A DNA stretch of 51,538 nucleotides from Candidatus Komeilibacteria bacterium S5_K13 (GTDB lineage Bacteria > Patescibacteriota > Patescibacteriia > UBA1558 > S5-K13): positions 1 to 51,538 of the forward strand of contig JAEHGL010000003.1 of the NCBI GenBank assembly GCA_019248485.1, written 5' to 3'. The notes beneath the pieces were generated by a model. It worked only from the letters and a program-made list of their open reading frames with translations. It was not told the DNA's origin and made no database searches. Position 1 is the first letter of the stretch. Every line of letters starts with the position of its first letter. This document shows positions 363 through 49,300 of this stretch, one piece after another. The position numbers were made by a program, and so were the translations under genes.

Positions 363-1544
363 TCATTTAAAATTAACTATGTGTTCCATCATTTGATCTA
401 CTTTTTTCTTCCACGTATGTTCTTTTATTAAATCTAATCTTGCCTGAACTTTTTCTTGAGAATTACTTATTAATTCTTCGTTAATGCACGAATTAAATCT
501 TTCAAAATCATTTGCAACACTTACAACATCCTTAAATTGCTCTACTCCTGGGGCATCCGTTGTCACAACCGAAATCCCACATGCTAAATATTCATATAAT
601 TTCATAGGGCAGGTATATTTTATAAAGTCATTTATATAATGCGGAATTATTCCGACATCAAATCTACTTATATAATCTGGCGCTTCAACATATTCCTTTG
701 CGCCTAAAAGATAAATGTTTGAAAATTTACTAAGTCTTTCTTCATCTTCTTTTTTCCAAATTGGACCAACGAGCACAATTGATTTATCCAAATTTTTTTT
801 AGCAACATACTCAACCATATCAAGATTAACTCTATTTTCTTGAATAATGCCAAGATATCCAATGATTGGTCTTGAAATTTTTGCTATATCGTTATTTATA
901 AGCTTGCTTTTATTTGCATAATGAGCAAGATCAATACCCTGGGTAATGTGATATACCTTATCTACTCTTGGATAAAACATTTTTTCACTTGCCTCAGATA
1001 AAACAAATATTATATTTGCTCTATCTCTTATTGTTTTATAATTTTCCTCTATTTTTGTTTTAATTTTTTTGTAACTTGCATGTTCTGCCCAATTATCAAC
1101 GGTATCAAAAACAGAGATATCATAGTCTATAGAATCAAAATAATCTGTATTTATTGGATAATAAGACCATAAGACAATATTTTTATAATCTTCTTTTATT
1201 AAATAATCATTTATTTCTTTAAAACATTTTTTGTAATTAAAAATATTTTTTACAGTCGAGTAAACATAAACGTTTTCTTCTGGGCTATATATTTTTGTAT
1301 GTAGAGTTGATCTAATTGTTTTTCCTATATTATTCAAAAATATATTCTCCTTCCAATTACGAAGCGCTCTTTTTTTAGTCTGAGGCAAATAATCAATGAG
1401 AAGTATTCTATTTACAAGGTTATTAGATTTCAAAGAATTAAAAACCTGAAAATTTCTGTTACTGACACCCCTTTCCCAATCTGTATAACTAGACATGCAA
1501 AACATTACAATATCAAATTTTTTATCTTTTTTTATCATAAACAA
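363..1544 (-). CDS. Glycosyltransferase, GT4/GT-B family
   Basis: C-terminal GT-B motifs IIGYLGII, LLGAKEY, FDVGIIP, CPMKLYEYLACGISVV. The start may be the second Met (ATGA overlap with the upstream gene). Confidence 0.9.
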   Translation of the reverse strand: MFMIKKDKKFDIVMFCMSSYTDWERGVSNRNFQVFNSLKSNNLVNRILLIDYLPQTKKRALRNWKENIFLNNIGKTIRSTLHTKIYSPEENVYVYSTVKNIFNYKKCFKEINDYLIKEDYKNIVLWSYYPINTDYFDSIDYDISVFDTVDNWAEHASYKKIKTKIEENYKTIRDRANIIFVLSEASEKMFYPRVDKVYHITQGIDLAHYANKSKLINNDIAKISRPIIGYLGIIQENRVNLDMVEYVAKKNLDKSIVLVGPIWKKEDEERLSKFSNIYLLGAKEYVEAPDYISRFDVGIIPHYINDFIKYTCPMKLYEYLACGISVVTTDAPGVEQFKDVVSVANDFERFNSCINEELISNSQEKVQARLDLIKEHTWKKKVDQMMEHIVNFK

Positions 1545-2656
1545 TTTTCTAATTTTTTATATATATCTTCCCACAAAAAATTATTCATAATTCTTCTATG
1601 TGCATTTTCTCCCAATTCCTTACTAAATACCTCATCATTTAACAAGTATAAAATTGCCTCTTTTGCCCCCCTTGGGCTATTTTCATCTATTAAAATACCT
1701 GTCTTTCCATCTTGAATTGCTTCTGATCCCCCACCCACTATAGAAGCTATTGATGGTTTTTTAAATATTCCAGCCTCAAGATAAACTATTCCGAAACCCT
1801 CTACATCATCCTTACTTGTATGGCTAACCATTGCAAAAATATTTGATATATCATAAAAATAAGGTAAATCTTGATTTTCTATATTTTCTAAAAATAAGAT
1901 ACTGCTCTCTAAATTTAAATTTCTTACTTTTTGTTTTAAATATTCTAAATTTTCACCAGATCCTATTATTAAATATCTAAAATCCACAATATCTTGATCT
2001 TGTTTAATTAAATTTATTGCATCAATAATAAGTTCATGATTTTTTCTCTTTATAACTCTTCCAACAGATAAAACAATCTTTTTATTTTGTAAATTATATT
2101 TATTTATAATTTCTTGTTTTCTGTTTTTATCAATATCAGAAAAATATTTATTAATTCCAGGATAAAGCAATAATATTTTATTGGCTCCAAGTGATTTAAT
2201 AATCTCCATTACTAATCCTGATGTAGTTTTACTATTTACAGTAACAAATTCTGCATTTTTTAAAATCAACTTCGCAAGAACTTTTTTTCTTATACTACTT
2301 GACGCTAATTTTATATCAAATCCATGAAGCGATACAAAATATGGTACCTTAAAAAATATTTTTATTAAAAATGCACAAACGCCAAGTGGTAAAATATTTC
2401 CTACCCAAATGATTTCTATTTTCTCTTTTTTCACTAATCTATATAACTCTACGCAAGACTTAATCCACCTTGGCCAAATAAATTTATATAACAAATTTTT
2501 ATAGACAAGCTTAAACTCTTGATGTGTTTCTGACTTTACATGAGAAAGAACAATTATTTTATCTTTTGGAAACAATTTAACTAAATTATAATAATAATTA
2601 CTAATGCCACCCATATTTGGCCAAAAATCAAGAGTTATAAGAAGAGTTTTTTTCAT
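1535..2656 (-). CDS. Glycosyltransferase, GT4 family
   Basis: DFWPNMGGISNY N-terminus; VGRVIKRKN; EGFGIVYLEAG donor-binding motif; GGGSEAIQDGKTG. Confidence 0.92.
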   Translation of the reverse strand: MKKTLLITLDFWPNMGGISNYYYNLVKLFPKDKIIVLSHVKSETHQEFKLVYKNLLYKFIWPRWIKSCVELYRLVKKEKIEIIWVGNILPLGVCAFLIKIFFKVPYFVSLHGFDIKLASSSIRKKVLAKLILKNAEFVTVNSKTTSGLVMEIIKSLGANKILLLYPGINKYFSDIDKNRKQEIINKYNLQNKKIVLSVGRVIKRKNHELIIDAINLIKQDQDIVDFRYLIIGSGENLEYLKQKVRNLNLESSILFLENIENQDLPYFYDISNIFAMVSHTSKDDVEGFGIVYLEAGIFKKPSIASIVGGGSEAIQDGKTGILIDENSPRGAKEAILYLLNDEVFSKELGENAHRRIMNNFLWEDIYKKLENCL

Positions 2657-2720
2657 CTTTATTAAAAAAGTTCTTTATTAAGGACATTTTAATTATATCA
2701 CACCAAAAATCTTTAAACTA

Positions 2721-2749
2721 TTGACAAATGAAAAATTTATTGTTAATAT
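2721..2749 (+). promoter_or_regulatory. Sigma70-type promoter driving the putative ncRNA
   Basis: TTGACA (2721-2726), 17-nt spacer, TAATAT (2744-2749). Confidence 0.65.
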
Positions 2750-2755
2750 ATCGAT

Positions 2756-2966
2756 AATTAAGGGCTTCATATCCTCCTTATCTAACAGAAGCCCTAAGCC
2801 AGGTCATAGAAAAAAAGATCCAAAAGGCTGGATTAATCTATGACCAAGAAGATACACAGACTTACATGGAGAGGCTATTATACTGCAAATTGTGGTTAAA
2901 GAGACTCTTCGCACCCCCTAACGTTTGTGCTATTCGTGGGGCTCTAATCCAGGGGCCCCATTTTTT
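2756..2966 (+). ncRNA. Unidentified structured non-coding RNA (about 205 nt)
   Basis: GC-enriched intergenic island between a consensus promoter and an intrinsic terminator. Helices: agggcttc/gaagccct (2761-2768/2788-2795), ggtcataga/tctatgacc (2802-2810/2837-2845) with inner atcca/tggat, and gcac/gtgc. No known RNA family recognised. Confidence 0.55.
2937..2966 (+). terminator. Rho-independent terminator
   Basis: tggggct-N10-ggcccca stem followed directly by TTTTTTGTTTT. Confidence 0.75.
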
Positions 2967-3011
2967 GTTTTCAAAATTATTTATCTTTTTCATCCTCACT
3001 ACATCTTTATG

Positions 3012-3020
3012 TGATATAAT
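3012..3020 (+). promoter_or_regulatory. Extended -10 promoter element (probably leaderless transcript)
   Basis: TGnTATAAT ending 6 nt before the ATG at 3027. Confidence 0.5.
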
Positions 3021-3026
3021 ATATAT

Positions 3027-4046
3027 ATGCAAAAAGCTTTATTATATAAACAATCAAAAAACAATAGCGTTCAATGTGAGCTATGTAATCATTTCTGTAG
3101 AATAGATAATAATTGCATTGGTTTTTGTGGTGCCAGAAAAAACATAGGCGGAATATTATATTCTCTTAATTACAATAAACTAGTAGCTCTCAATTCTGAT
3201 CCTATTGAAAAAAAACCATTTTTTCATTATATGCCAGACTCTCTTACATATTCAATATCCGCTATGGGCTGTAATTTTTCATGCCTTAATTGTCAAAACT
3301 GGCAGATATCTCAACTCAATAAAATAGAACGCCTTGACGAACAATTCCCTGGGAAAAACATAAATCCTAAAAAGATTATTGATTTAGCAAGAAAAGAAAA
3401 ATGTCTTTCTATTTCATATACATATACAGAACCAACTGTTTTTTTGGAGACCGCACTTCCCATAATGAAGCTCGGATCTAAAAACGGTCTCAAAAATCTT
3501 TGGGTATCAAATGGATTTATGAGTCGTAGTTGTCTTGATTTAATTATTCCATATCTAGATGCCATAAATATAGATCTCAAATTTTTTAGTGAGACAAAAT
3601 ACAAAAAAATAGCAAACGCCTCTTTAAAACCAATATTAGATAATTTAAAATATCTAAAATCAAAAAAGATATTTATAGAAATAACGACACTTCTTATTCC
3701 CGGAGAAACAAATACCAACAAACAACTAGAAAAAATAGCTAGGTTTATATATACAAATATTGGAAAAAATACTCCTTGGCATATCTCTGCTTTTTCTCCA
3801 GAAATTTCATATAAATTACTTTCCAAAAAGGCTAGCTCAATGGAAGAATTAGAAGTAGCTTATCAAATTGGTAAAAATGCAGGGCTAGAATTTGTATATC
3901 TTGGAAATGTTGCATCAGACACAAGAGAAAATACATATTGCCCCAAATGTGGATTTCTAAACATAGAAAGACAAGGATATATCATAACTCGCGACGACAA
4001 CAGTGGACTTTGTCAAAACTGCAATTATAATCTAAATATACTATGA
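3027..4046 (+). CDS. amrS: AmmeMemoRadiSam system radical SAM enzyme (PFL-activase-like)
   Basis: N-terminal CELCNHFC...CGAR; DPIEKKPFFH; radical SAM motif CNFSCLNCQNWQISQ; YTYTEP; NIDLK; C-terminal TYCPKCG...CQNC. Confidence 0.93.
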   Translation: MQKALLYKQSKNNSVQCELCNHFCRIDNNCIGFCGARKNIGGILYSLNYNKLVALNSDPIEKKPFFHYMPDSLTYSISAMGCNFSCLNCQNWQISQLNKIERLDEQFPGKNINPKKIIDLARKEKCLSISYTYTEPTVFLETALPIMKLGSKNGLKNLWVSNGFMSRSCLDLIIPYLDAINIDLKFFSETKYKKIANASLKPILDNLKYLKSKKIFIEITTLLIPGETNTNKQLEKIARFIYTNIGKNTPWHISAFSPEISYKLLSKKASSMEELEVAYQIGKNAGLEFVYLGNVASDTRENTYCPKCGFLNIERQGYIITRDDNSGLCQNCNYNLNIL

Positions 4047-32763: not shown

Positions 32764-32900
32764 GGAGGTTAGATGGTTAGGGTGGTTAGGGTGGTTAGAG
32801 TGGTTAGTGGGGTTAGAGTGGTTAGTGGGGTTAAAGTGGTTAGGGTGGCTGGGGTTTCTAACCTTTCTAACTTTTCTAACCTCACTAACCCTACCAGTCT
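32764..32900. repeat. 9-bp GGTTAG(G/A/T)NN array (about 10 units) followed by an inverted CTAAC arm (about 4 units)
   Basis: ggttag-type units at 32767, 32775, 32784, 32793, 32802, 32811, 32820, 32829, 32838 and 32847, then tttctaacc-type units. Confidence 0.9.
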
Positions 32901-36759: not shown

Positions 36760-36768
36760 CCCCTATCT

Positions 36769-36804
36769 CCCCTCACCCTACCCTCTCCCAAATCAGGGAG
36801 AGGG
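36769..36804 (+). repeat. C-rich REP-like palindrome, copy B
   Basis: cccctcaccctaccctctccc-aaatca-gggagaggg (9-bp stem); preceded by a partial arm at 36751-36770. Confidence 0.88.
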
Positions 36805-37227: not shown

Positions 37228-37239
37228 AATCGCAGTTCT

Positions 37240-37272
37240 CCCCTCACCCCACCCTCTCCCAAATCAGGGAGA
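37240..37272 (+). repeat. C-rich REP-like palindrome, copy D
   Basis: cccctcaccccaccctctcccaaatcagggaga; 32/33 nt identical to copy B. Confidence 0.88.
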
Positions 37273-37344: not shown

Positions 37345-40300
37345 TTAGTTATTATTTTTATTACTATTTCCGCTTGCTAAATCTCTTCTATAAACATATT
37401 CTACTGTAATCGTAAGCTGTGATGGGTCTTCACTTTCTTCTCCTCCGCTCGACACCTGAGTTACTGTCACATGCATTCCGTCTTCACTTGTTAGATTTAT
37501 ATTTAAATTATCTGACTCTATATTTGCATAACCATTTGAACAGTTTCCACCTGATATTGTTGCAAGCTCGCTATTGTTTTTGTCCTCTAATCGAAGCGAT
37601 ATGCTTCCCCCATCACCACATTTATACTGTGCTTTGAGTTTCAAAATCTTGATATCCTCTGCAGGTCTCCACGAGTTTTCACCATTTCCCCAAACGCGAG
37701 TATCAACACGTGGCACGTCAACATAAGCAGTTATAGTATCTCTTACTGCTGAGTCAGGCAATATATATGCGACTCCTTCTACATTTAAATCTACTGTATC
37801 TCCAGTTTTTCCAACCTGCAACTTGTTTCCATTTGCTGAGATTACACCGTCTGAGCTAAACATAAGTTCTGCAATACCAGATGGCGTTCCACTTGCATTG
37901 AGCGATGGTGAGATTACAACTCTTCCAAAAAAGTTCGCAGAGACGTTATCATCAGTCGCGACGACTGTCAAAGTGGTTGATGAAATATTTTGTGACATTG
38001 AAAAACTATCAAGAGCAACGTTTTGTGGGCTCATCAAAATATTTCCATTTCCGTTTACTGACATAATTCTCTGACCACCATTTTGAAGTACCCATAGGTC
38101 ATCATACTGGGCAACATTTCTATTGAAATCATTTAGGACAAGTGCATTTGACCCTACAACTTTTCCATAATTATCATGACTTGTTGTAAGTTTGGTGCCA
38201 TTTCCTAAATCAAAGCTTAAATTATTTCCTGAGTATAAATTATATGAAGATGTGATAAGTGAAACTGCATTTGTTGTATCAACATATTCTGATGAATTTA
38301 AAATATCTCCAGTAAGTGCTGTAGTTTTAATATCAGAATAATTTGAAGACAAACGAGAAGCAGAAATATCAATATGACTTAGCATTCTTGCAGAAGATGT
38401 TGCACTCCAATTTTCATCATACAAACTCCAATTTATAGCAATGTCAACATTTTTTGTTTCTATTGAGTTAAATTTCAAATCAACAAGTGACGCACTTGAT
38501 GTTGACCCAGTTGCTAAATTTTCATTATCAAATCCTGAAACAATCTTTATAGCTGATGAGCTTGCAGTAGCCATTGCAAAATCTGATTTATTATAATCTA
38601 TTAATACATTTGTTAGGTCAAAACTAAATTTATCAGAGTCAGTGCTTGACGCAGTAATTGTAATTACTTCTTGACCAATTTCATCGCCATAATTTGCAAT
38701 TGTCATATTTGAAACAGATGATTTGCTAGATGCTATTAATGCTGAATGATTAATCTGAGTAATTCTTGTATTTTCACGACCCGATCCAACGATATCAACA
38801 TAAGGTTTGAGAATAACTTGTTCATTATATATCCCTGGCTTTACAGTAATAAGCCAACGATTGTTTGCGCTGTTTAATTTTATCTTTGATAATGCCTCGC
38901 TAATACTTGTATAATCTCCGCCCTGTTTTGCAACTACAACTTCATTTTGTCTATCATTTGAAATAGCAAGTATTGAAGATTCATTTGTCTTTGCAACTGA
39001 TAATAAAACTTTGTTCTCATCACTTCTAATACTTGTTACAAGAATCTCACCATTTGAATCTATGTAAATATAATTTTCAACATTTGGTAAAAGCATAACT
39101 TGTCTAGCTGGTTTTGTTGAAACATAAACTCCATTTATATAAGCTTCGCCAGATGACAATGTTGCTACAAGTGAATTTTGAGTACTTGTTGATTCCAACA
39201 TAAATCCATCAATTACATAATGAGCAAGTTTGTTTCCATTTCCTGTGAAATCAATAAATGTTCCAAGATTTTCAAAGGTTTCAAATTTATCATTGGTGCT
39301 TAATAATTTTCCATTTTCACCAATATTTATATCAACTAATAATCCTTTGAAAATATTACCACTTGATGTAATGATTCCGTTTAGAGTTGCAATAGCTTGA
39401 CCCGAGACATTTTGGATATTATTGTTCATCACAATCATATCGTTGTCGGATGCAAAATTTACAATACCTTGATTCATTGAACCAATAAATTCATTTTCTG
39501 AAATTACAGGATTAATATTACTTGCTGTTGTATTTTCAATATTTATTCCCGTAGCACCACTCACCTCAGATATTATTCTATTGTTGTTTATCACTGGACT
39601 TGATCCTAAAATAGATACGACTGAGACATTGCTTACTGAGCCAGTTGACTTTAGAGAACAATTTTCAATTCTTGAATTGTTTGCACCTATTACTGCTGGT
39701 GCACTACTGCCAATAATTATTGTATTAGAACTATTTTCACAAACTACATCAACATAAGGCTTTAGAGTAATTGTTTCACTATATTCACCAGCTTTTATAT
39801 TTATTACATATCTCTTTGATTCACTACTGTCTGTAATTGATGACATAGCGCTTAAAATATTTTCAAAGTCTCCGCCTGATTTTGCGACTTCTATTGTTAT
39901 GCCATGATTATTGAAATATCCAATTTGAACACTAATTGCAATTTGATCATGACCACCTTCCATATCTTCCATTGCGATACCAATAACTCCTGCACCCAGC
40001 TTACTTGCTTTTTGTGCTTTTCCAATTTCATTTGAAGTAGTCAAATAATCACCCTTCTTGATAAGTCCATTTGAAGCTGTGACATTTACAAGACTTGCTC
40101 CCATTGTAACTATTGGCTTACCAGTCTCACTATTTCCAGAAATAAATGCAGGCTTCTCTGCTATTATTCCCAAAATATTTGAACTATTTGCGCGGTCAGA
40201 AAGTTTTACACTATTGCTATCACCGAGAACAACTACATCACCATACTCAAAGTTTGAGTCCGCAAGTTCCATCATCTGGGCATAACCTGAATTTGATGAT

Positions 40301-43300
40301 TTGAAAGATCCACTAGAATAAATATCGCCGATTACAAGTAAGTCACCCAAGAACTCTGCATTTCCTTTGACACTCAAAGTGCCATCTACAAACATATCTC
40401 CACCAACTCCAATATCACCCTTAACAAATAAATCGTCACCCGTCATATTGAACTCAGTCCATGACAATACTGGCACCTCTGCCCCTACTAATACATTGTC
40501 ACCAAAGTAAGATTTGCCACCAAGATTGTCAACAAAGATTGCCCAGTTGGTTGTAGATGCACTATTTAGATTTATGTATTGACCAATTTGAGTTCCAGCT
40601 TTTGAGTCACTAGCTGAGACAATATAAGATCCATAATTTACATCCACTGAATCAGATGTTTGAAGCTCTGTGTAATTTCCAAATGCTGTTTGAGCCTTTC
40701 CGTCTAGCGCTGTAGATAGTTTATTGTAAATTGAATATCCCGTTGCATTTTCTCCTGTTACGTAAATATCATTAAAATCGCCAAAGCCATAACTATCTAC
40801 ACTTTGAAGATTTACTTGATAAAGATTTCCTATTGAATCAGCGTTTCTAATAAAATCCCAAACATTTGTTTTGTAATCAGATCCTTTTAGCCTATTTATT
40901 TCATCTGCCAAAATTGCAACAGTATCACTTGTTTGATCGAGCGAATCATAAACAATATCCAACGAATTGTTTATAATACTTTCTGTAGTGCTTGCAAAAT
41001 TATAGTTTGAAATTGCACCTGAGATCATAATTGCAACCTCATCTTCCATTTCCATATTTGCAATTCTATCTGTAATTTGATTTTCAATTTGCTCCACTGT
41101 TAATGATTTGTTTCTTCTTGATATAAGCACATTTATAGATCCAGAATCAGAGCTAAGTGATTCAAGTGCAATACCAACTGTTGAATCACCTGGATTTGCT
41201 TTCATCAAATATCCAGACCGTGATGCTGATGTAAGCGAATCGCCTGGGTTTATATTTCCATTTTCATTTATAACATATGCAGGAATTTGACCAAGAAGAG
41301 CTATCATTTTATAGTTTGGATTGTTTTCATATTCTTCTTTCCCGTTTCCAAGCATTGCTGGTTTTGTTGAGACAATTCCAATAATATTTGTGTCACTTAA
41401 TCTTGTGCATCTTGCTACTGAATTGTTTCTGGTGACATCAATACAAACTGCTTCACCAGATACTAAATCAGTATTATTTGTGTAAAAATATTCTGCATAA
41501 TCAGCAGCGGGAGAGGTAAATGATCCATCTGCTGTGACATTTCCATCTGCTGTTACTTTAAAAATATTTGCTCCACCCCCTGACGTTGATGTTGAAATTG
41601 CAAACATAGCGACAGTAGGAGTTGATGTGGCATTATATATTTGCAAAAATGCACTTGGAGTAGTCGTGCCAACTCCTAACTTTCCATTTACTGTAATTGT
41701 TCCTGCGGTAGTTCCCGATAAATACGCAGTTGAATTAAAATATACATTATCACTATAAGTATTTAACCAATAAGCAGATGATGAGCCAAGATTATATGTG
41801 CTATCAGCATTTGTATACATATGATTACTTGTGACATTTCCACTTACTACCACTGATCCAGAAACCGTTCCACCAGATACTTGTAAATATCTATCATCAT
41901 GAGTATGAGTGGATGTAACTGCAAGTCCAATTTTTGTATCAATGTCTTCTAGTCGTAGATCAAGTGAAGCAAATATTCCATACGTAGCAGAACTCCTTGC
42001 TTGGATGACTTCTGTTTCAACAGTGTTTGACCCCTCACCCGCCCAAGTATCCCCATCAAAAGCAGTGACAGTAATTCCTTTTATAATAGGTGTAGTTCCA
42101 ACTCCTGCAGTCATCACGGCTTTTGCTTTTACTTGCTTTCCAATATTTGTAAACTCCCACAAAACATTTGGCGTGACAGGCCCCTCCCAATTGACTCCGT
42201 TATCAGCAGATAAATACCAATCTATGGCATTTCCAGTTCCGACAACACTATTATCAATTAATTTTGCACTTGTGATATCATTTGCTGAATTAATAATCAC
42301 GTTTGTTTCAAAAATACTACTCGTATCAAATATAAGTTGACTCTTATAAACATCTGCCAAACTATAAAAAGAAAAATAATAATATCCATTATAATAAAGT
42401 GGGGTCAAATTATATCCTGAACTTACACCCTCTCCCGTAACCTTAAAGTCACTTGATATAACAAAATAATCATCTACATTTAAATCATATACAAGATACC
42501 CCGAGGGAGACATACCAGCATATGATCCCAACCAAATTTGATTACCAATTTTTCTTATTGAAGTATATCTTGACGCCGTACTAATACCAAGTTCTTCATC
42601 TGTTCTATGAAACTCTTGCCAACCATTTGCTTTTGAAAGTTTTTGCCAAGAATTAGCGCCTGAAAGCCAAACAATATCTGAATCATCTGGATCTTGCCAA
42701 GAAGCATAAATCGTATTCGTATAATTGTATAATCCTTGAGGACCATTTGCATAATATCTTTTTGTAAGAGTATCTGTATCCATGTTCCAGATATAAAAAC
42801 CTGAAATATTAGAAATATACAATTCATTTCCATTGGCTATCACATCAGTATAATTAGTTTGTGGTAAACCACTAGCACTACCATAATCTGTAAATGTTCC
42901 ACTTGCTACATTAAAAACTTGCATATAATTTCCACTTGGAAATAAGTATACTTTATTATTATAATAATACATTACATTTCCGACGCCAGATCCTATAGAA
43001 TTAGATTTAAGACCGTGTGCTGTTGTATAAGTTGTTATTGTGTTTGCATCAACGTCTATTTTTACAAGTCCCGGCGCACCAGAATACATACCTACATAAA
43101 TATCATTTCTATCGTAATCATACGCTATGCTTGAAAAATTATTTATAGTAAGAGCTGGGACAGAGGTGGTATTCCATTGATTGGCAATGGACTCTGTATC
43201 AAGATCAAGCACTTTTACTCCATATCCATAAGTTGCCATATATAATTTATTTCCATAAATAATATTTCCCGACAAAGCTCTCATGCTATCACCATATCCA

Positions 43301-46300
43301 TAATTAATATCAATTTTTGATATAGGACTTAGATCGTTTTGTATTGTTCCTATTTGAGTATTGTATGCTGCTGTTGTATTTGATGTATTAACACTCGTAG
43401 CTGTTCTAAAATCATCAGAGAACAAAGACGCATTGCTCATTATAGAAGAATAGTTTGCTGTTATGGCGTTAAATCTGTCATTTAATGTGCTATAAGTGCT
43501 TCTTCCCTCCACCACCTCATCAACTCGATCTCCAGAAATATTTCCAAGAGAATCAACCACAGTAGTGTTTCCTACTGCAAATCCGTTTGAACTTGTAACT
43601 GTTCCTCCGACGCTTATACTTGTATTAAAATTCACTACAGTATCTGCCATTATCATCCCATCACCGTCAAATTGCATATTTCCGTTTACGACTAGTGCTT
43701 GTTGTGGAGTCGTGGTTCCTATTCCAAAATATCCGCCGTCTGTCATTACAAATTGCGCAACACCATTTCCACTAGGATTAAATGATAAATAATCATTAGT
43801 TGTGTCATAACCAAGTAGTGCATAATTTCCTGCTGTTCCAATATTTATACTATTTGGTCCGAGATATAAATCCTTCCATCTGTTGGTATCTGATCCAAGA
43901 GTATAAGTGTTATCTACTGACGGTAAAATATTTCCTGTAAATGTTGCAGTTCCACCAACTGACAAATTGCCAACCGTTGAAATATCACCTGTTAATGCAG
44001 TAATAGTTGCCACACCACCGACTGATAAATCACCTGAGAATAAAGAACTTCCAGATGACGAAATTTTTAATCCTGTATTTCCATAATAATAAGCATCATC
44101 ACCAGAATCATAAACAGCTATATAAGAGTCATTATCTTTATTTATTATTCCTATCTCATCATTTATGGCACCCGAACTCAAAGCTAAATTCCCCTGTGTA
44201 CCACTAACCATCACTTCGTTTGTAAACAAACCATTCCCAGATTGTGTGATAGTTGCGAATCCTCCAACTGATAAATTATTTGAGAATAATGAATTACTAT
44301 TTACTCCATCTACAAGCAAGGCCCCATTGCCATAAGTATAAGTATTATCTGTTAAATTCATCTCAGCTAAAATCTGATCTCCATTACCAGAATATAGACC
44401 AACCGTATTATCTCCATCATCCCAATAATCTCCTATATATAATCCGTCTGTACCTTCTGACATAATACCTACTATATTTCCAGTTGGACTGATTGTTAGA
44501 TTTCCAGATCCGTCTGTTTCAAACGTTGTATAGTTTAAAGAATCATAGCCCAGCGTAAATTGAGGTAAGGTTGAATTTATAACATGAAGTGCTGATGATG
44601 GAGTTGAAGTTCCTATTCCAACATATCCATTTGATGGATTTACATATAATTGATTTGTATTTACTGCAAAAGCACCAGCAACCGTAGTTGAAGCTAATGT
44701 ACTTGTACCTGTAACATTTAAATTTCCTTGTACTCCAAGATTTCCAGTTGTAGTTGCGTTTGTTATTTGTAAATTTTGTAAGTTGCTAGTTCCCGTTACA
44801 AATAAATTACTTGCCAAGGTGCTTGTTCCTCCATTTGGAGTGACACGCAAATCACCAGATGAATCTGTTCCAAATGTTGTGTATTTACTTCCATCATATG
44901 CTAACGTAAATTGTTGTGCTGATGTAGATGCTACGTGAAGAGTTGAAGATGGCGTTGTTGTGCCAATACCAATTGTTCCTGAGGCATGTACATAAAGTAA
45001 TGAATTATTATTATATTTAAAATTAAAATTATTTGATGCTAAATACATACCAATATTTGTAGATGGACTATCAAACCTTGATACTAAGGTTCCATATATC
45101 CCAGCAGAAGAACTAATCCCCGTACCACTTAACCAACCATTACTGGAAATACCATATGTAGAATTGGACTCTAAATACTTACCATTATCAAATACAAGCC
45201 TACTAATAGTTGTTGTGGCTAATGTACTAGTGCCACCAACACTTAAATTTCCTGATACTACTTGATTACCAGATGTCGTAGCGTTTCCTGAGACTGTTAA
45301 AGATGAAATTGTTGTCGTAGCTAAATTGGTGAGTCCTAATACTGCCAAGTTTCCAGTTGTAGTTGCATTTGTTACTTCTAGACTAGCTAATGTTGAAAGT
45401 CCTGAAACATTAAGTGCTGATCCAATATAATGAGATCCTGTTGTTGTTACGTTTCCATATAGTAGTGTTGTTCCATTTACTGTAAATGTTGACTCCGGCG
45501 TAGTAGTACCTATTCCGACATATCCAGAACTAATATTTACAGACACACCAGCATCATCATCATAACCAGCAAATTTATAAGCCGTTTGAGCTGTATTTAC
45601 GCCAACTATAAGCTCATCATTAGCGCCATAAAGCATTCCGACCTCTCCGCCTATATTATCATAACCTATTTTTATATTATTATATGTATCTCTATCACCA
45701 AAAATTCCACCATTAGCACGTAATTGACCTAAATATTGATCTGATGCATAAATATCCAATGCATATTGTGGGGTAGTTGTTCCTATTCCGACGTTGCCAG
45801 ATGAACTTTTAAAGGTAATAATCTCACCTATATCTCCCCAAAAAATAAAATCCCTATCAAGCCCCTCATCATTACCCAATGCATAAGCTCCTGGAGAATA
45901 AGTATCATAACCAAGAATTCCAAAACCACTATAATCCTTTAATGAGCCTGATATTCTTATACTACCGTTCACCTGCAATTTATCGTTTGGACTATCTGTT
46001 CCTATTCCTACATTTCCATTTACTGGATTTACATATAACTGATTTGTATTAACTGCAAAATTTCCTGCGATTGAGGTGCTCGCAAGTGTTGTATTTCCAG
46101 TCATTACCAAACTATTTGTTCCTGTTGCATTTGTAAATGCAAGATTTAATATTGTCGATGAACTAAAAGATGCTGAGCCATTTATTATTCCTGTTACTGT
46201 TAGGTCGCCTGTGATTGTTGTAGTTGCTAAATTGGTAAATCCTAATACTGCTAAGTTTCCAGTTGTTGTTGCATGTGCTACTTGTAGATTAGCTAATGTT

Positions 46301-49300
46301 GAAAGTCCTGATACATTAAGTGCGTCAGTTACTGCAAGGCTAGAAATAGTAGTTGTGGCGAGTGTACTAGTACCAACAACTGCTAGTGTTCCTGTAAAGT
46401 TTGCAAAGCTAGAAATTGTTTGACCATTTATAAGACCGGAAGTAATTGTTCCAATATTTACAAGATTACCACTTGCATCTATTCTTTGTGTTCCAGAGTC
46501 TGCTCCAGTATTTATTCCTGTTGTACCATTTAGTGTTGTTCCTGTAATTGTATTGTTTGTAAGTATGGTTCCAAATCCTGTATTGATAGATCCTGAATTT
46601 AATACTCCTACTCCAGTTAAAGATGAATTTACAATATTTGATGGCAGTGTTGTTGTGCTAAACCATGTTGATAATGATAAATACGTTGTAGAGGCTGTAG
46701 AGCTTAATAAGTATCCTGCACTTGCATGATTGCCCCATCCATATGCACTATCCCAATATGATGAAGATGCTGTAACTGTATTGTACGTAGTGTTCCATTG
46801 TGTTGAATTTCCACCAAGAGCAGAAATAATTCCCGTTGCATCAAATGTTCCTGCAACCGTTGTTGTGGCTAAACTTGTATTTCCAAGCACTACTAAGTTT
46901 GTTCCAGTAGCACTACCAAATGTAAAATTAGTAAATGTTGATGAACTACTAATAAATGATCCGTTGATAGTTCCACCTACCGTTAAGTTACCCGATACTA
47001 CTTGATTACCAGTTGTAGTTGCATCTCCTGAAATTGCAAGGGTGGCAATTGAAGTATCGGCCAACGTCGAAGTTCCGGTTACTACAAATGTATCATCCAC
47101 TACAACATCTCCTAAATTCGCAGCTGATAATACAAGATCCAAATCAAGATAAGAAGAATTCGTTTGAACATATAGTGATGAATCACTCTTTATATATGAC
47201 GCTGTGCTGTTTGTAAATATCAAATTGTTTGCAACTGCAACATCTCCAACAGCTTCAAATGATACAGGATTAAACATGCTAATTTGCATATCAGATATTC
47301 TCATTGCTTCACTACTTCCTGCCGTGATGCTTATTGTATCATCTTCATATCTATAAAATCCTGTATTAGGATCTCCTACAAATGCGATTGAAGGATTTGT
47401 CGAAGAACCATCACTCACTGTTAAAGTTCCTTCTACTACTGCATTACCACTTACATATATTTGAGTTGATGTTGCTACTCCGTCAATTGTAAGTCCTCCG
47501 CTTGAAAGTTGAAGTAAATCAGCATTTGCAGATAGTCCAATATTGTTTCCAGCTATTTGTACATTGCCCAATGTGCTTGTTCCTACGACTCTTAAATCGG
47601 AATATATGGTTGCGTTTCCAGATACTGCAAGTGTGCCACTTGCTGATAAATTTCCTAGTGTTGTAAGATTTCCGTTTGTAGTTGTTATGGTTGCAAAATT
47701 TCCAAGTGATAAAGAATTCCCTGTTTCATATATTGATGAATTTATTGTTGTAGTTGCAGTGTCATATCTTACTAAATAACCAGCAGTTCCAGATCCTGAT
47801 AATTTATTATTAAATATTAGCCAATCTGAATTTTGAAGTTGCCCAGTATTTACAGCTGATGCTATTGGCATATTAAAAGTATGCGTAAAACCAGATGAGA
47901 CAATATTGAAAATACTTCCACCAGTTCCCGTTGCAAAAGTTTGAGTAGAAGCTGTAAGACCATTCAAATTAACCAGCGCATTTCCTCCTACTATTGTAGA
48001 AGTTGATACCCATTGTGTAGAAGTTCCAGTAGATCTTAGTATCATATCGCTCGACCCCACACTGTCAGTAGAATCTTTGAGTGATCCCAATAAACTAAGT
48101 TCTGTGATTGATGTTGTAGCAAGTGTTGAAGTTCCAGAGACATTTAGATTTCCCAATACTACTTGATTGCCAGTTGTTGTTGAGTTTGTTACTTGCAAGT
48201 TTTGTAAGTTGCTAGTTCCTGTCACAAATAAATTACTTGAGAGAGTTGTGGTTCCACCATTTGGAGTGACTCTTAAATCACCACTAGCATCTGTTCCAAA
48301 TGTTGTATATTTTGTTCCGCTATATCCCAATGTAAATTGGGATCCTGATGTATTTACTAAATGAAGAGTTGAGGATGGTGCTGAAGTGCCAATACCCAAG
48401 TTACCAGCAATACTCATTAACATTTTTGTACTATTAGCAATCATAAAATTAATACTTCCATTTGGCGCGTTAAGATAAGTGTTTGTAGCTCTAGAAACTA
48501 ATGCATAATTACTTTGAGACGGAGTAACAGACGAACTCCAAATACTACCCCCGGTAGCATCATATTCACCGAAAATTAATCCTCCACCCGCCGAGCCTTT
48601 GATTCGTATTGGGTAATTATTTACACCAAGAATATCAAGTTTATATTCAGGGCTATTTGTTCCAACTCCGATATAACCACTCGTTGAACTTACATATAAT
48701 TGATCTGTATTAACACTAAAATTTCCTGCAATAGTTGTGCTAGCAAGTGTTGAAGTTCCAAAGACTCTTAATGTTCCACTTGCTGATATACTTCCCAAAG
48801 TTCCAAAATCTCCTATTGCAGTAATTGTTGATCGTCCTCCAATTCCTAAAACGCTACCATCTTCATATAATATTGAAGATGCAGATATTGTATTTGCATC
48901 AGACCATTTTGTTAAATAATTTGTTGTTCCTGTAATTCCTGTAAAGGCTCCTGTAGCATTTCCCTTTAACATTCCAGTAAGAGTTGTTGTTCCTGTTCCA
49001 CCGTATGCAACTGCAATAGTATTTCCATTCCAAGTCCCTGATGAAATAGTTCCAAGCGACAAATTTCCACCCAAACTAACATTACCCATTAATTCTATAA
49101 TTGGAGCTGTTAATGAAATTGTATTTCCTGCAACTTGTCTAATCATTGAATGCGCACCATTTGCAGTTAAGACAATATCTGAATAATCTACGCCAGTCAA
49201 AATTGATATATCACCACTTGAATTATTTACTAAATTCAAAGAGTATGGAGATCCACCGTTAGAAGGAACTGTAATATCAACACCGCTAACACCATCAACC

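Follow-up and report, generated by a model that had tools for sequence, protein, structure and literature searches.

The cuckoo/alpha-r14 small RNAs (sRNAs) carry CCUCCUCCC anti-Shine-Dalgarno (anti-SD) motifs in hairpin loops, on stems that are variable (PMC4615179, PMC10746234), and the passages cited here define them by two to four adjacent hairpins, each with CCUCCUCCC in its loop (PMC4615179). NfeR1 silences ntrB through anti-SD seeds and is described there as Hfq-independent (PMC4615179, PMC10746234). For staphylococcal sRNAs, C-rich unpaired loop motifs have been proposed to pair with ribosome-binding sites, repressing translation (PMC4615179), and RoxS/RsaE of the Firmicutes is presented, in the part of the source drawn on here, as a C-rich-loop sRNA with the same type of action (PMC8216469). 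We have analysed a DNA stretch of 51,538 nucleotides (nt) from Candidatus Komeilibacteria bacterium S5_K13 (GenBank assembly GCA_019248485.1, contig JAEHGL010000003.1, positions 1 to 51,538; here called the window), in which positions 2721-2967 of the forward (+) strand probably hold a functional RNA gene. Its features point to a stand-alone, conserved and genus-restricted sRNA gene of a new family. A first-pass annotation, made from the sequence alone, had noted a structured RNA at this place; the feature that best suggests a function, an invariant anti-SD-like loop, was absent from that annotation.

The predicted RNA gene and its conservation

The window belongs to a genome of 1.06 Mb, in 133 contigs and 99% complete (G000). 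Two other genomes of the same genus (G001 and G002) and one of a sister genus (G006) were compared with it. The sigma-70-type promoter of the RNA matches the consensus at 10 of 12 positions and has TG before the -10 element; from its position, transcription would start at about 2756-2757. One terminator-like site is present in 2400-3300, compared with 0.3 +/- 0.6 in shuffled sequence. The G+C content of 100-nt windows across 2750-2999 is 0.36-0.44, and that of the flanks is 0.17 (2650-2749) and 0.25 (2950-3049). The near-consensus promoter, the GC-rich island, the terminator and the helices were all located where the first-pass annotation had put them. The sRNA is single-copy in G000. Short open reading frames (ORFs) in the four RNAs considered here, those of the genus and the one found at the same locus in G006 (see below), are not conserved (19 amino acids (aa); 11 and 22 aa; none; 32 aa). 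The locus therefore has the generic attributes of an sRNA gene, namely its own promoter, its own terminator, a conserved structure and no conserved ORF.

The + strand of 2756-2966 folds with a predicted free energy of -66.7 kcal/mol (z -4.50), and none of 200 shuffled sequences was as stable, whereas the - strand of the same region gave a z of -1.46 and was equalled by 17 of 200 shuffles. The homologues in G001 and G002 fold with z values of -4.95 and -4.13. Minimum free energy, centroid and consensus folds all give a row of four to five separate hairpins, with the terminator hairpin at the 3′ end. Two smaller structural points of the first-pass annotation are present on the + strand but do not rise above chance. 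Its 13-nt near-direct repeat (2791 and 2941) is identical at 11 of 13 positions, and a 13-mer repeat with at most two mismatches arose in 61 of 500 mononucleotide shuffles. Its 8-nt complement (CTGGATTA at 2828 and TAATCCAG at 2945) was lost in G001 and G002, and a perfect 8-mer inverted repeat occurred in 105 of 500 such shuffles. The alternative conformations that had been suggested through this complement are therefore not supported. The C and G runs of a further suggestion of that annotation, a CCCC/GGGG pseudoknot, are present as well (Table 1). The promoter, hairpins and terminator are well beyond chance, because they are conserved in both sister genomes.

When BLAST was run against 61 related genomes, the sRNA was found in three including G000, and the matches in G001 and G002 ran through hairpin 2 only. 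In all three genomes of the genus it has the same position and orientation, between the same two genes. The alignment showed that the sister genomes keep the promoter (with TAATGT in G002), the order of the hairpins and the terminator. In a curated structure of 42 pairs, 92.8% of the cells were standard pairs, compared with 27.5-43.9% when the partners were slid by 1-3 columns. Seven of the 42 pairs had changed on both sides, against 0-1 when slid, and none of 500 shuffles reached the observed value. Compensatory changes were seen in five of the seven helices. They affect two of the seven aligned pairs of hairpin 1 (helix 1), three pairs of the central domain (helices 4-6, of which helix 4 is unpaired in the window's own sequence) and one pair of the conserved terminator (helix 7). 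Hairpin 2 is the most conserved helix, with an invariant outer stem, one compensatory pair in the inner stem and the loop block CCAAAAGG. Helices therefore covary in the two sister genomes. The covariation is supportive but of low power, because there are only three sequences, two of them close.

A covariance model of hairpins 1 and 2 (R1) was run over 86 genomes of the order. The three members of the genus scored 107-133 bits and the next best match 28 bits; the best 10 of the weak matches were inspected and proved to be coding or unrelated sequence. Contigs were also scanned with a pattern drawn only from hairpin 2, to avoid selecting for the loop motif and its conservation. Genome contigs of 185,579 species gave four matches, two of them the sister genomes and two due to chance. 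Metagenome contigs gave two, both due to chance, and viral contigs none. BLAST of the sRNA against phage records gave no match. Within the genomes and contigs scanned, the sRNA, as recognised by these models, is confined to one genus.

The RNA had not been matched to tRNA, transfer-messenger RNA (tmRNA), the RNA of the signal recognition particle, RNase P RNA or a common riboswitch in the first-pass annotation, and this was borne out both at the locus and across the window. ARAGORN found no tRNA or tmRNA gene in the window, and Rfam at the gathering threshold gave no match in the whole of it. In E-value mode, Rfam gave 10 matches in 2600-3100, of which the best had an E of 0.69 and all were far below the gathering scores. 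At E<=0.1 there was none in loci L002, L003 and L064, and the G006 spacer showed nothing notable against Rfam (best E 0.02, to a plant microRNA model). RNase P RNA (194 bits) and tmRNA (93 bits) sit elsewhere in G000.

Anti-Shine-Dalgarno-like elements and their candidate targets

As read from the alignment, no invariant run within the RNA is longer than UCCUCCUUAU (2772-2781), which lies in the middle of the hairpin-1 loop and is identical in all three genomes. It is constant while the stem of hairpin 1 changes with compensation. This run (seed 1) has CCUCCUU in common with the 3′ tail of the organism's own 16S rRNA, which in G000 ends in ...GGATCACCTCCTTTCTAAGG / ...GGAUCACCUCCUUUCUAAGG (tail CACCUCCUUUCUAAGG). 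Given that 16S end, the hairpin-1 loop copies the anti-SD core CCUCCUU and, with one extra base, the UCUAA that follows it. In a partition-function fold, the probability that seed 1 is unpaired is 1.00. A second CU-rich element (seed 2) lies just 5′ of the terminator and reads ACCCCCUAA in the window, CCUCCUCCUUAC in G001 and CUCUCCUUAAG in G002; its probability of being unpaired is 0.95 in the window and 0.99 in G001.

The corresponding spacer of G006 holds a different RNA, with an 11-bp closing stem, five hairpins and a fold z of -8.51. R1 gave no match to it, and BLAST with this RNA in 86 genomes returned only low-complexity A-rich matches. Non-homologous as it is, the G006 RNA has UCCUCCUU in a hairpin loop, together with an exposed CCCUCC stretch. 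All 10 occurrences of CCYCC in the four RNAs have a probability of 0.89-1.00 of being unpaired, against per-RNA means of 0.42-0.49. That the motif is what functions is best argued from its presence in two unrelated RNAs at one locus, that of the genus and that of G006.

Use of Shine-Dalgarno (SD) sites in G000 was assessed on crude gene calls, in which each long ORF was taken to begin at its first ATG (841 genes). Before these starts, SD-like motifs are most frequent at -12 to -7; a 5-mer core precedes 100 of the 841 genes (about 12%) and a 7-mer precedes 70. On these calls, SD initiation is the minority mode in G000, yet strong where it is used (AAGGAGGAUA...). The arrangement AAGGAGG-N4-9-ATG occurs 55 times in G000, compared with 12 for the control, and the consensus of the strong sites is AAGGAGGA(U/A)A. 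Duplexes of the hairpin-1 loop with these sites have predicted energies of -16 to -22 kcal/mol, whereas the 16S tail gives -11 to -14 kcal/mol on most of them.

We propose that the RNA is an Hfq-independent, trans-acting sRNA whose anti-SD seeds would mask the strong SD sites of the SD-led minority of genes, and we put the probability of this reading at about 0.45. An sRNA of about 211 nt would be made from its own strong promoter to its own terminator, in a small-genome genus resembling those of the Candidate Phyla Radiation (CPR). Two single-stranded CU-rich seeds, UCCUCCUUAU in the hairpin-1 loop and the C-rich element before the terminator, would be exposed and resemble the anti-SD end of 16S rRNA. 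They would base-pair with strong SD sites in the minority of SD-led genes. This pairing would block binding of the 30S subunit without Hfq, much as described for alphaproteobacterial anti-SD sRNAs and for Firmicutes sRNAs with C-rich loops, and a subset of genes would be switched off. Hfq was not found in genome G000. Because SD-led initiation is the minority mode in G000, such an RNA would address a defined subset of genes and not all of them. The proposal draws on observed properties of the locus and genome: gene anatomy, conservation, covariation, motif invariance, predicted accessibility and the presence of matching SD sites.

Candidate targets were ranked by duplex energy, and Pfam was run on 18 of the top 20, omitting the giant proteins L078 and L079. 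Six gave a match above the cut-off, two a match below it, and 10 had no family. Target prediction is without specificity, because the seed is essentially a generic anti-SD. Transcription of the RNA, its pairing in vivo and the genes it would address are inferred. The initiation regions of purA were compared and gave one possibly compensatory position, which is anecdotal. By hand count, AT follows AAGGAGG at 21 of 55 sites in G000, 12 of 32 in G001, 3 of 22 in G002 and 9 of 32 in G006. The seed flanks of G000 and G001 differ, though their shares of AT are similar (21/55 and 12/32). Several of the SD-led genes examined are patchily distributed.

A number of results weigh against the proposal. 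The seed is close to a generic anti-SD, and the energies predicted for it and for the 16S tail correlate at 0.83. Neither G001, G002 nor G006 has an orthologue of the DUF3307 gene that scored best as a predicted target; purB is present in only 2 of 14 family genomes; and purA, present in 10 of 14, carries an SD even where a genus has no such RNA. Nor do the bases that follow AAGGAGG, as counted by hand, clearly track the seed flank. The second element of G002 has no CCYCC, and hairpin 2, the most conserved helix with its loop block CCAAAAGG, has no role in the seed model. The small number of homologues, three with two of them close, keeps the power of the covariation low.

Two further observations concern G-rich leaders and purA. 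Very G-rich leaders, with runs such as GGGAGAGGGTGGGGTGAGGGGAG, lie at 36760-36794 (-) and 37228-37262 (-) of the window and also on contig C69, just upstream of a 1286-aa ORF, a 117-aa ORF and, on C69, a 1176-aa ORF. They are the best predicted partners of seed 2 (-19.7 to -22.1 kcal/mol). The purA gene of G000 (C48:35689-36978) is 42-43% identical to those of the sister species (G001 C3, G002 C8) and shares 54% identity with its counterpart in another genus. Upstream of purA, some 38 nt of DNA are nearly identical in the three members of the genus (L097, L103, L104). By these comparisons, purA of G000 looks like an in-place gene replacement.

Neighbouring genes and competing explanations

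The RNA gene is flanked by a divergent group-1 glycosyltransferase gene and, on its own strand, by a radical S-adenosylmethionine (radical-SAM) gene (Table 1). The latter may be of the AmmeMemoRadiSam type, a name that comes from Atlas and is a lead only. All 14 family genomes have it, and 13 of them, G001, G002 and G006 included, have the glycosyltransferase gene. A TATAAT lies 6-7 nt before the radical-SAM ATG in 12 of the 14, and is not visible in the extracts of G012 and G010. Most of the family genomes that keep this TATAAT have no such RNA upstream, and some have unrelated genes there. We predict a leaderless radical-SAM mRNA, transcribed from the gene's own promoter, and this arrangement appears conserved in the family. 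Because the gene has its own promoter close to its ATG, the sRNA would not be its leader, and the stand-alone transcript of the first-pass annotation fits what is seen across the family. An RNA is present between the two neighbour genes only in the genus (three genomes) and in G006; other genera have other, unrelated genes inserted between the two, or nothing. Beyond its first RNA, the G006 spacer also has another promoter-like site (TTGACA...TATAAT) and a hairpin resembling a terminator (L064:3008-3160), which suggests two tandem small RNA units there.

Table 1. Window coordinates of the RNA gene, its parts and its two neighbours
Feature	Position	Strand	Description	Support
Sigma-70-type promoter	2721..2749	+	TTGACA 2721-2726, 17-nt spacer, TG 2741-2742, TAATAT 2744-2749	
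Predicted sRNA transcript	2756..2967	+	about 211 nt	fold z, homologues, no Rfam match, single copy
Hairpin 1	2761..2795	+	8-bp stem (2761-2768 with 2788-2795), 19-nt loop	
Seed 1	2772..2781	+	UCCUCCUUAU, in hairpin-1 loop	invariant in 3/3 genomes, unpaired
Hairpin 2	2802..2845	+	outer 9-bp stem (2802-2810 with 2837-2845), inner 6-bp stem (2817-2822 with 2829-2834)	
Variable central domain	2851..2934	+	hairpin 3 and small hairpin 4	
Seed 2	2912..2920	+	exposed C-rich element ACCCCCUAA	
CCCCC	2914-2918	+		
Intrinsic terminator	2936..2967	+	10-bp stem, 6-nt loop, T-run	hairpin 2936-2961, 6/10 pairs G-C
GGGG	2938 and 2952	+		
Group-1 glycosyltransferase gene	1535..2656	-	divergent neighbour	Pfam Glycos_transf_1, 129.5 bits
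Radical-SAM gene with own promoter	3010..4046	+	promoter TGTGATATAAT (3010-3020), 6 nt, ATG 3027; gene 3027-4046	

The main rival to masking of SD sites is that the RNA is a decoy, mimicking either the single-stranded tail at the 3′ end of 16S rRNA or the CTAA-type, G-poor leaders, and titrating a binding factor, as CsrB titrates CsrA. The likeness of the loop to the 16S tail does exceed the SD-pairing core (CCUCCUU(A)UCUAA compared with CCUCCUUUCUAA), and the invariance of hairpin 2, which pairing leaves unexplained, would be in keeping with a bound factor. The RNA also has four CTAA (2782, 2794, 2918, 2944), or about 19/kb against 4.4/kb per strand genome-wide, and phased (CTAANNNN)n leaders, with units like seed 2 and like the 16S tail, abound in both G000 and G001. 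However, the CTAA excess is mild, four where about one is expected; G001 and G002 keep CTAA at only two of the four places, and no CTAA array is seen in the G006 analogue. The analysis brought up no candidate protein. We consider a decoy unlikely, with some real chance of being correct. A mimic of the 16S tail might instead act as a switch between classes of initiation, silencing the whole SD-led class and sparing core genes, and to this we attach a low probability. The sRNA would then sequester strong SD sites, or else a factor reading the 16S tail or leaders of the CTAA type. The silenced SD-led class would include newly acquired or invading genes, amounting to translational xenogeneic silencing by RNA, and the non-SD genes would be leaderless or have phased G-poor (CTAANNNN)n leaders.

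The strong and conserved structure, the lack of a match to any known family and a conservation of hairpin 2 that exceeds the need of a mere scaffold for seeds would also suit a structured RNA with some other role (for instance as an RNA chaperone, a scaffold or something like a ribozyme), to which the CU-rich loops would be incidental. Restriction to one genus argues against a core cellular role, and the recurrence of the loop motif in the non-homologous G006 RNA at the same locus argues that the motif is functional, so that we rate this explanation as improbable. Much the same holds, with slightly less in its favour, for a functionless or decaying transcribed element, the folded remnant of a lost gene or mobile element. 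Its narrow distribution (3 of 86 genomes of the order) and the finding of unrelated genes or nothing at this position in other genera fit such a remnant; the conserved promoter and terminator, the compensatory changes in five of seven helices and a 10-nt loop block invariant across the divergence do not, nor do its single copy and its lack of likeness to phage or viral DNA. It is very unlikely that the RNA is an attenuator or riboswitch acting in cis as leader of the radical-SAM operon, its terminator serving as expression platform. On the strand of the operon and about 60 nt ahead of it, the RNA does end in a terminator, and the 8-nt complement (2828-2835 with 2945-2952) could act as antiterminator. 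This only candidate antiterminator is nevertheless at chance level (105/500 shuffles) and lost in G001 and G002, no riboswitch family matches, and a read-through mRNA would have no SD before the ATG. In 12 of 14 family genomes, moreover, a TATAAT belonging to the operon stands 6-7 nt before the ATG, genomes that lack the RNA included. A divergent 6S RNA binding the RNA polymerase holoenzyme, which the first-pass annotation had raised, is disfavoured most strongly. A size of about 200 nt would fit, and the role is formally vacant since no 6S RNA was detected in G000. However, the 6S model (RF00013, threshold 46.4 bits) matched nothing at E<=10, either at the locus or genome-wide, the fold is a row of separate hairpins with neither a 5′-3′ closing stem nor a central bubble, and the sRNA is found in one genus only, whereas 6S RNA is broadly conserved where present.

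The CTAA-type leaders are a feature of the genome in their own right. G-poor tandem 8-nt units (NNNNCTAA)n that end about 4 nt before start codons were seen in the window at 32769-32850 (-) and genome-wide in G000, with arrays on contigs C1, C2, C13, C24, C44, C48, C61, C84, C90 and others. Upstream of the crude gene starts, CTAA begins most often at -8, -16, -24, -32 and -40. At least three CTAA lie within -45..-1 of 43 of 825 genes, and G000 has 107 arrays of at least three units. A four-unit pattern occurs 19 times in G000, 10 times in G001 and not at all in controls; 73 of the order's 86 genomes lack it. Among the common units is CTTTCTAA, a sequence with which the 16S tail also ends. The (CTAANNNN)n leaders may be a non-SD leader or translation element.

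Two protein-coding observations were made in passing. A 611-aa protein of G000 (C64:6249-8087; L090) has FlgD Ig-like and Por_Secre_tail (type IX secretion sorting) domains, the match being at the cut-off (27.1 bits); such a protein is unexpected in a CPR-like genome. On the - strand of the window, 37345-51408 is a single ORF of 4687 aa.

Comparison with known RNA families and sRNAs

Because G000 has no detectable signal recognition particle (SRP) RNA, the locus was considered as a candidate for it, and was dropped since Ffh and FtsY are absent too. The SRP RNA models RF00169 and RF01854 gave no match at E<=10 in genome G000 and none at the locus. The Ffh M domain (PF02978) gave no match in the genome, the SRP54-type GTPase domain (PF00448) reached at best 18.5 bits, below its cut-off of 22.7, and the DT[AS]GR motif was not found in six frames. 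With these three undetected in G000, an SRP RNA would have no protein partner. The positive control, SecY, was present at 349.6 bits. Among relatives in the order, SRP RNA was found in 0 of 41, and the SRP54 domain gave partial matches only (<=25 bits), nominally above the cut-off in 4 of 41. SRP subunits are absent in many CPR bacteria, according to the part of the report cited here (PMC8080830). Absence of SRP in G000 and its relatives is therefore ordinary for such lineages, which removes the SRP reading, and the absence in this lineage is probably already known.

Should the RNA prove to be expressed and to work by way of its anti-SD seeds, a CPR-like lineage would have a concrete riboregulator open to testing, and the placing of an anti-SD in a loop would have arisen independently once more. 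A narrow look through openly licensed papers found, among the matches listed, no paper on a regulatory sRNA in Patescibacteria, which is a weak statement; riboregulators of such lineages seem essentially undescribed. The practical value is modest, as metagenomes are the only source of the one genus that has this family, and the function of the RNA is inferred.

Of the housekeeping RNAs, 6S RNA (RF00013) resembles the window sRNA in size and in being an abundant-looking, stand-alone non-coding RNA gene with its own promoter, but the window sRNA has no match to the model, is not rod-like and is restricted to one genus. Bacterial SRP RNA (RF00169/RF01854) is a housekeeping RNA unaccounted for in G000, and the window sRNA has a conserved hairpin 2; here too, neither locus nor genome matches the models, and no Ffh partner was detected. 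The C-rich-loop sRNAs of Firmicutes (RNAIII of Staphylococcus aureus and others with a UCCC loop, and RoxS/RsaE) resemble it in having, as far as the cited passages describe them, C-rich unpaired loops in an AT-rich host. The motif in the window is a full anti-SD copy, CCUCCUU, and not UCCC or CCCC; there is no similarity in sequence or by covariance model, and the taxon is another one.

The window sRNA shares with the cuckoo/alpha-r14 RNAs (RSs0680a-d, S. meliloti C14 and NfeR1), in the features that the cited passages give, a stand-alone gene, a conserved anti-SD loop motif and variable stems. G001 and G002 carry CCUCCUCCU in the hairpin-1 loop, and G001 has it again in seed 2. In both cases there is more than one seed per RNA, and NfeR1 is described as Hfq-independent, as would suit G000, in which no Hfq was found. 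The two differ in that only hairpin 1 of the window RNA has an anti-SD-like loop, hairpins 2 and 3 having none, and seed 2 is a linker or small-loop element and not a comparable hairpin. The motif in the window is UCCUCCUU and not CCUCCUCCC, and the host is CPR-like and not alphaproteobacterial. Besides the missing SRP, its isoleucyl-tRNA synthetase (IleRS) points that way, with Atlas neighbours most often from Minisyncoccota and Roizmaniibacteriota, which is a lead only. No Rfam sRNA family rose above noise at the locus at E<=10. The relation of the window sRNA to the cuckoo/alpha-r14 RNAs is thus one of convergent design, not of membership.

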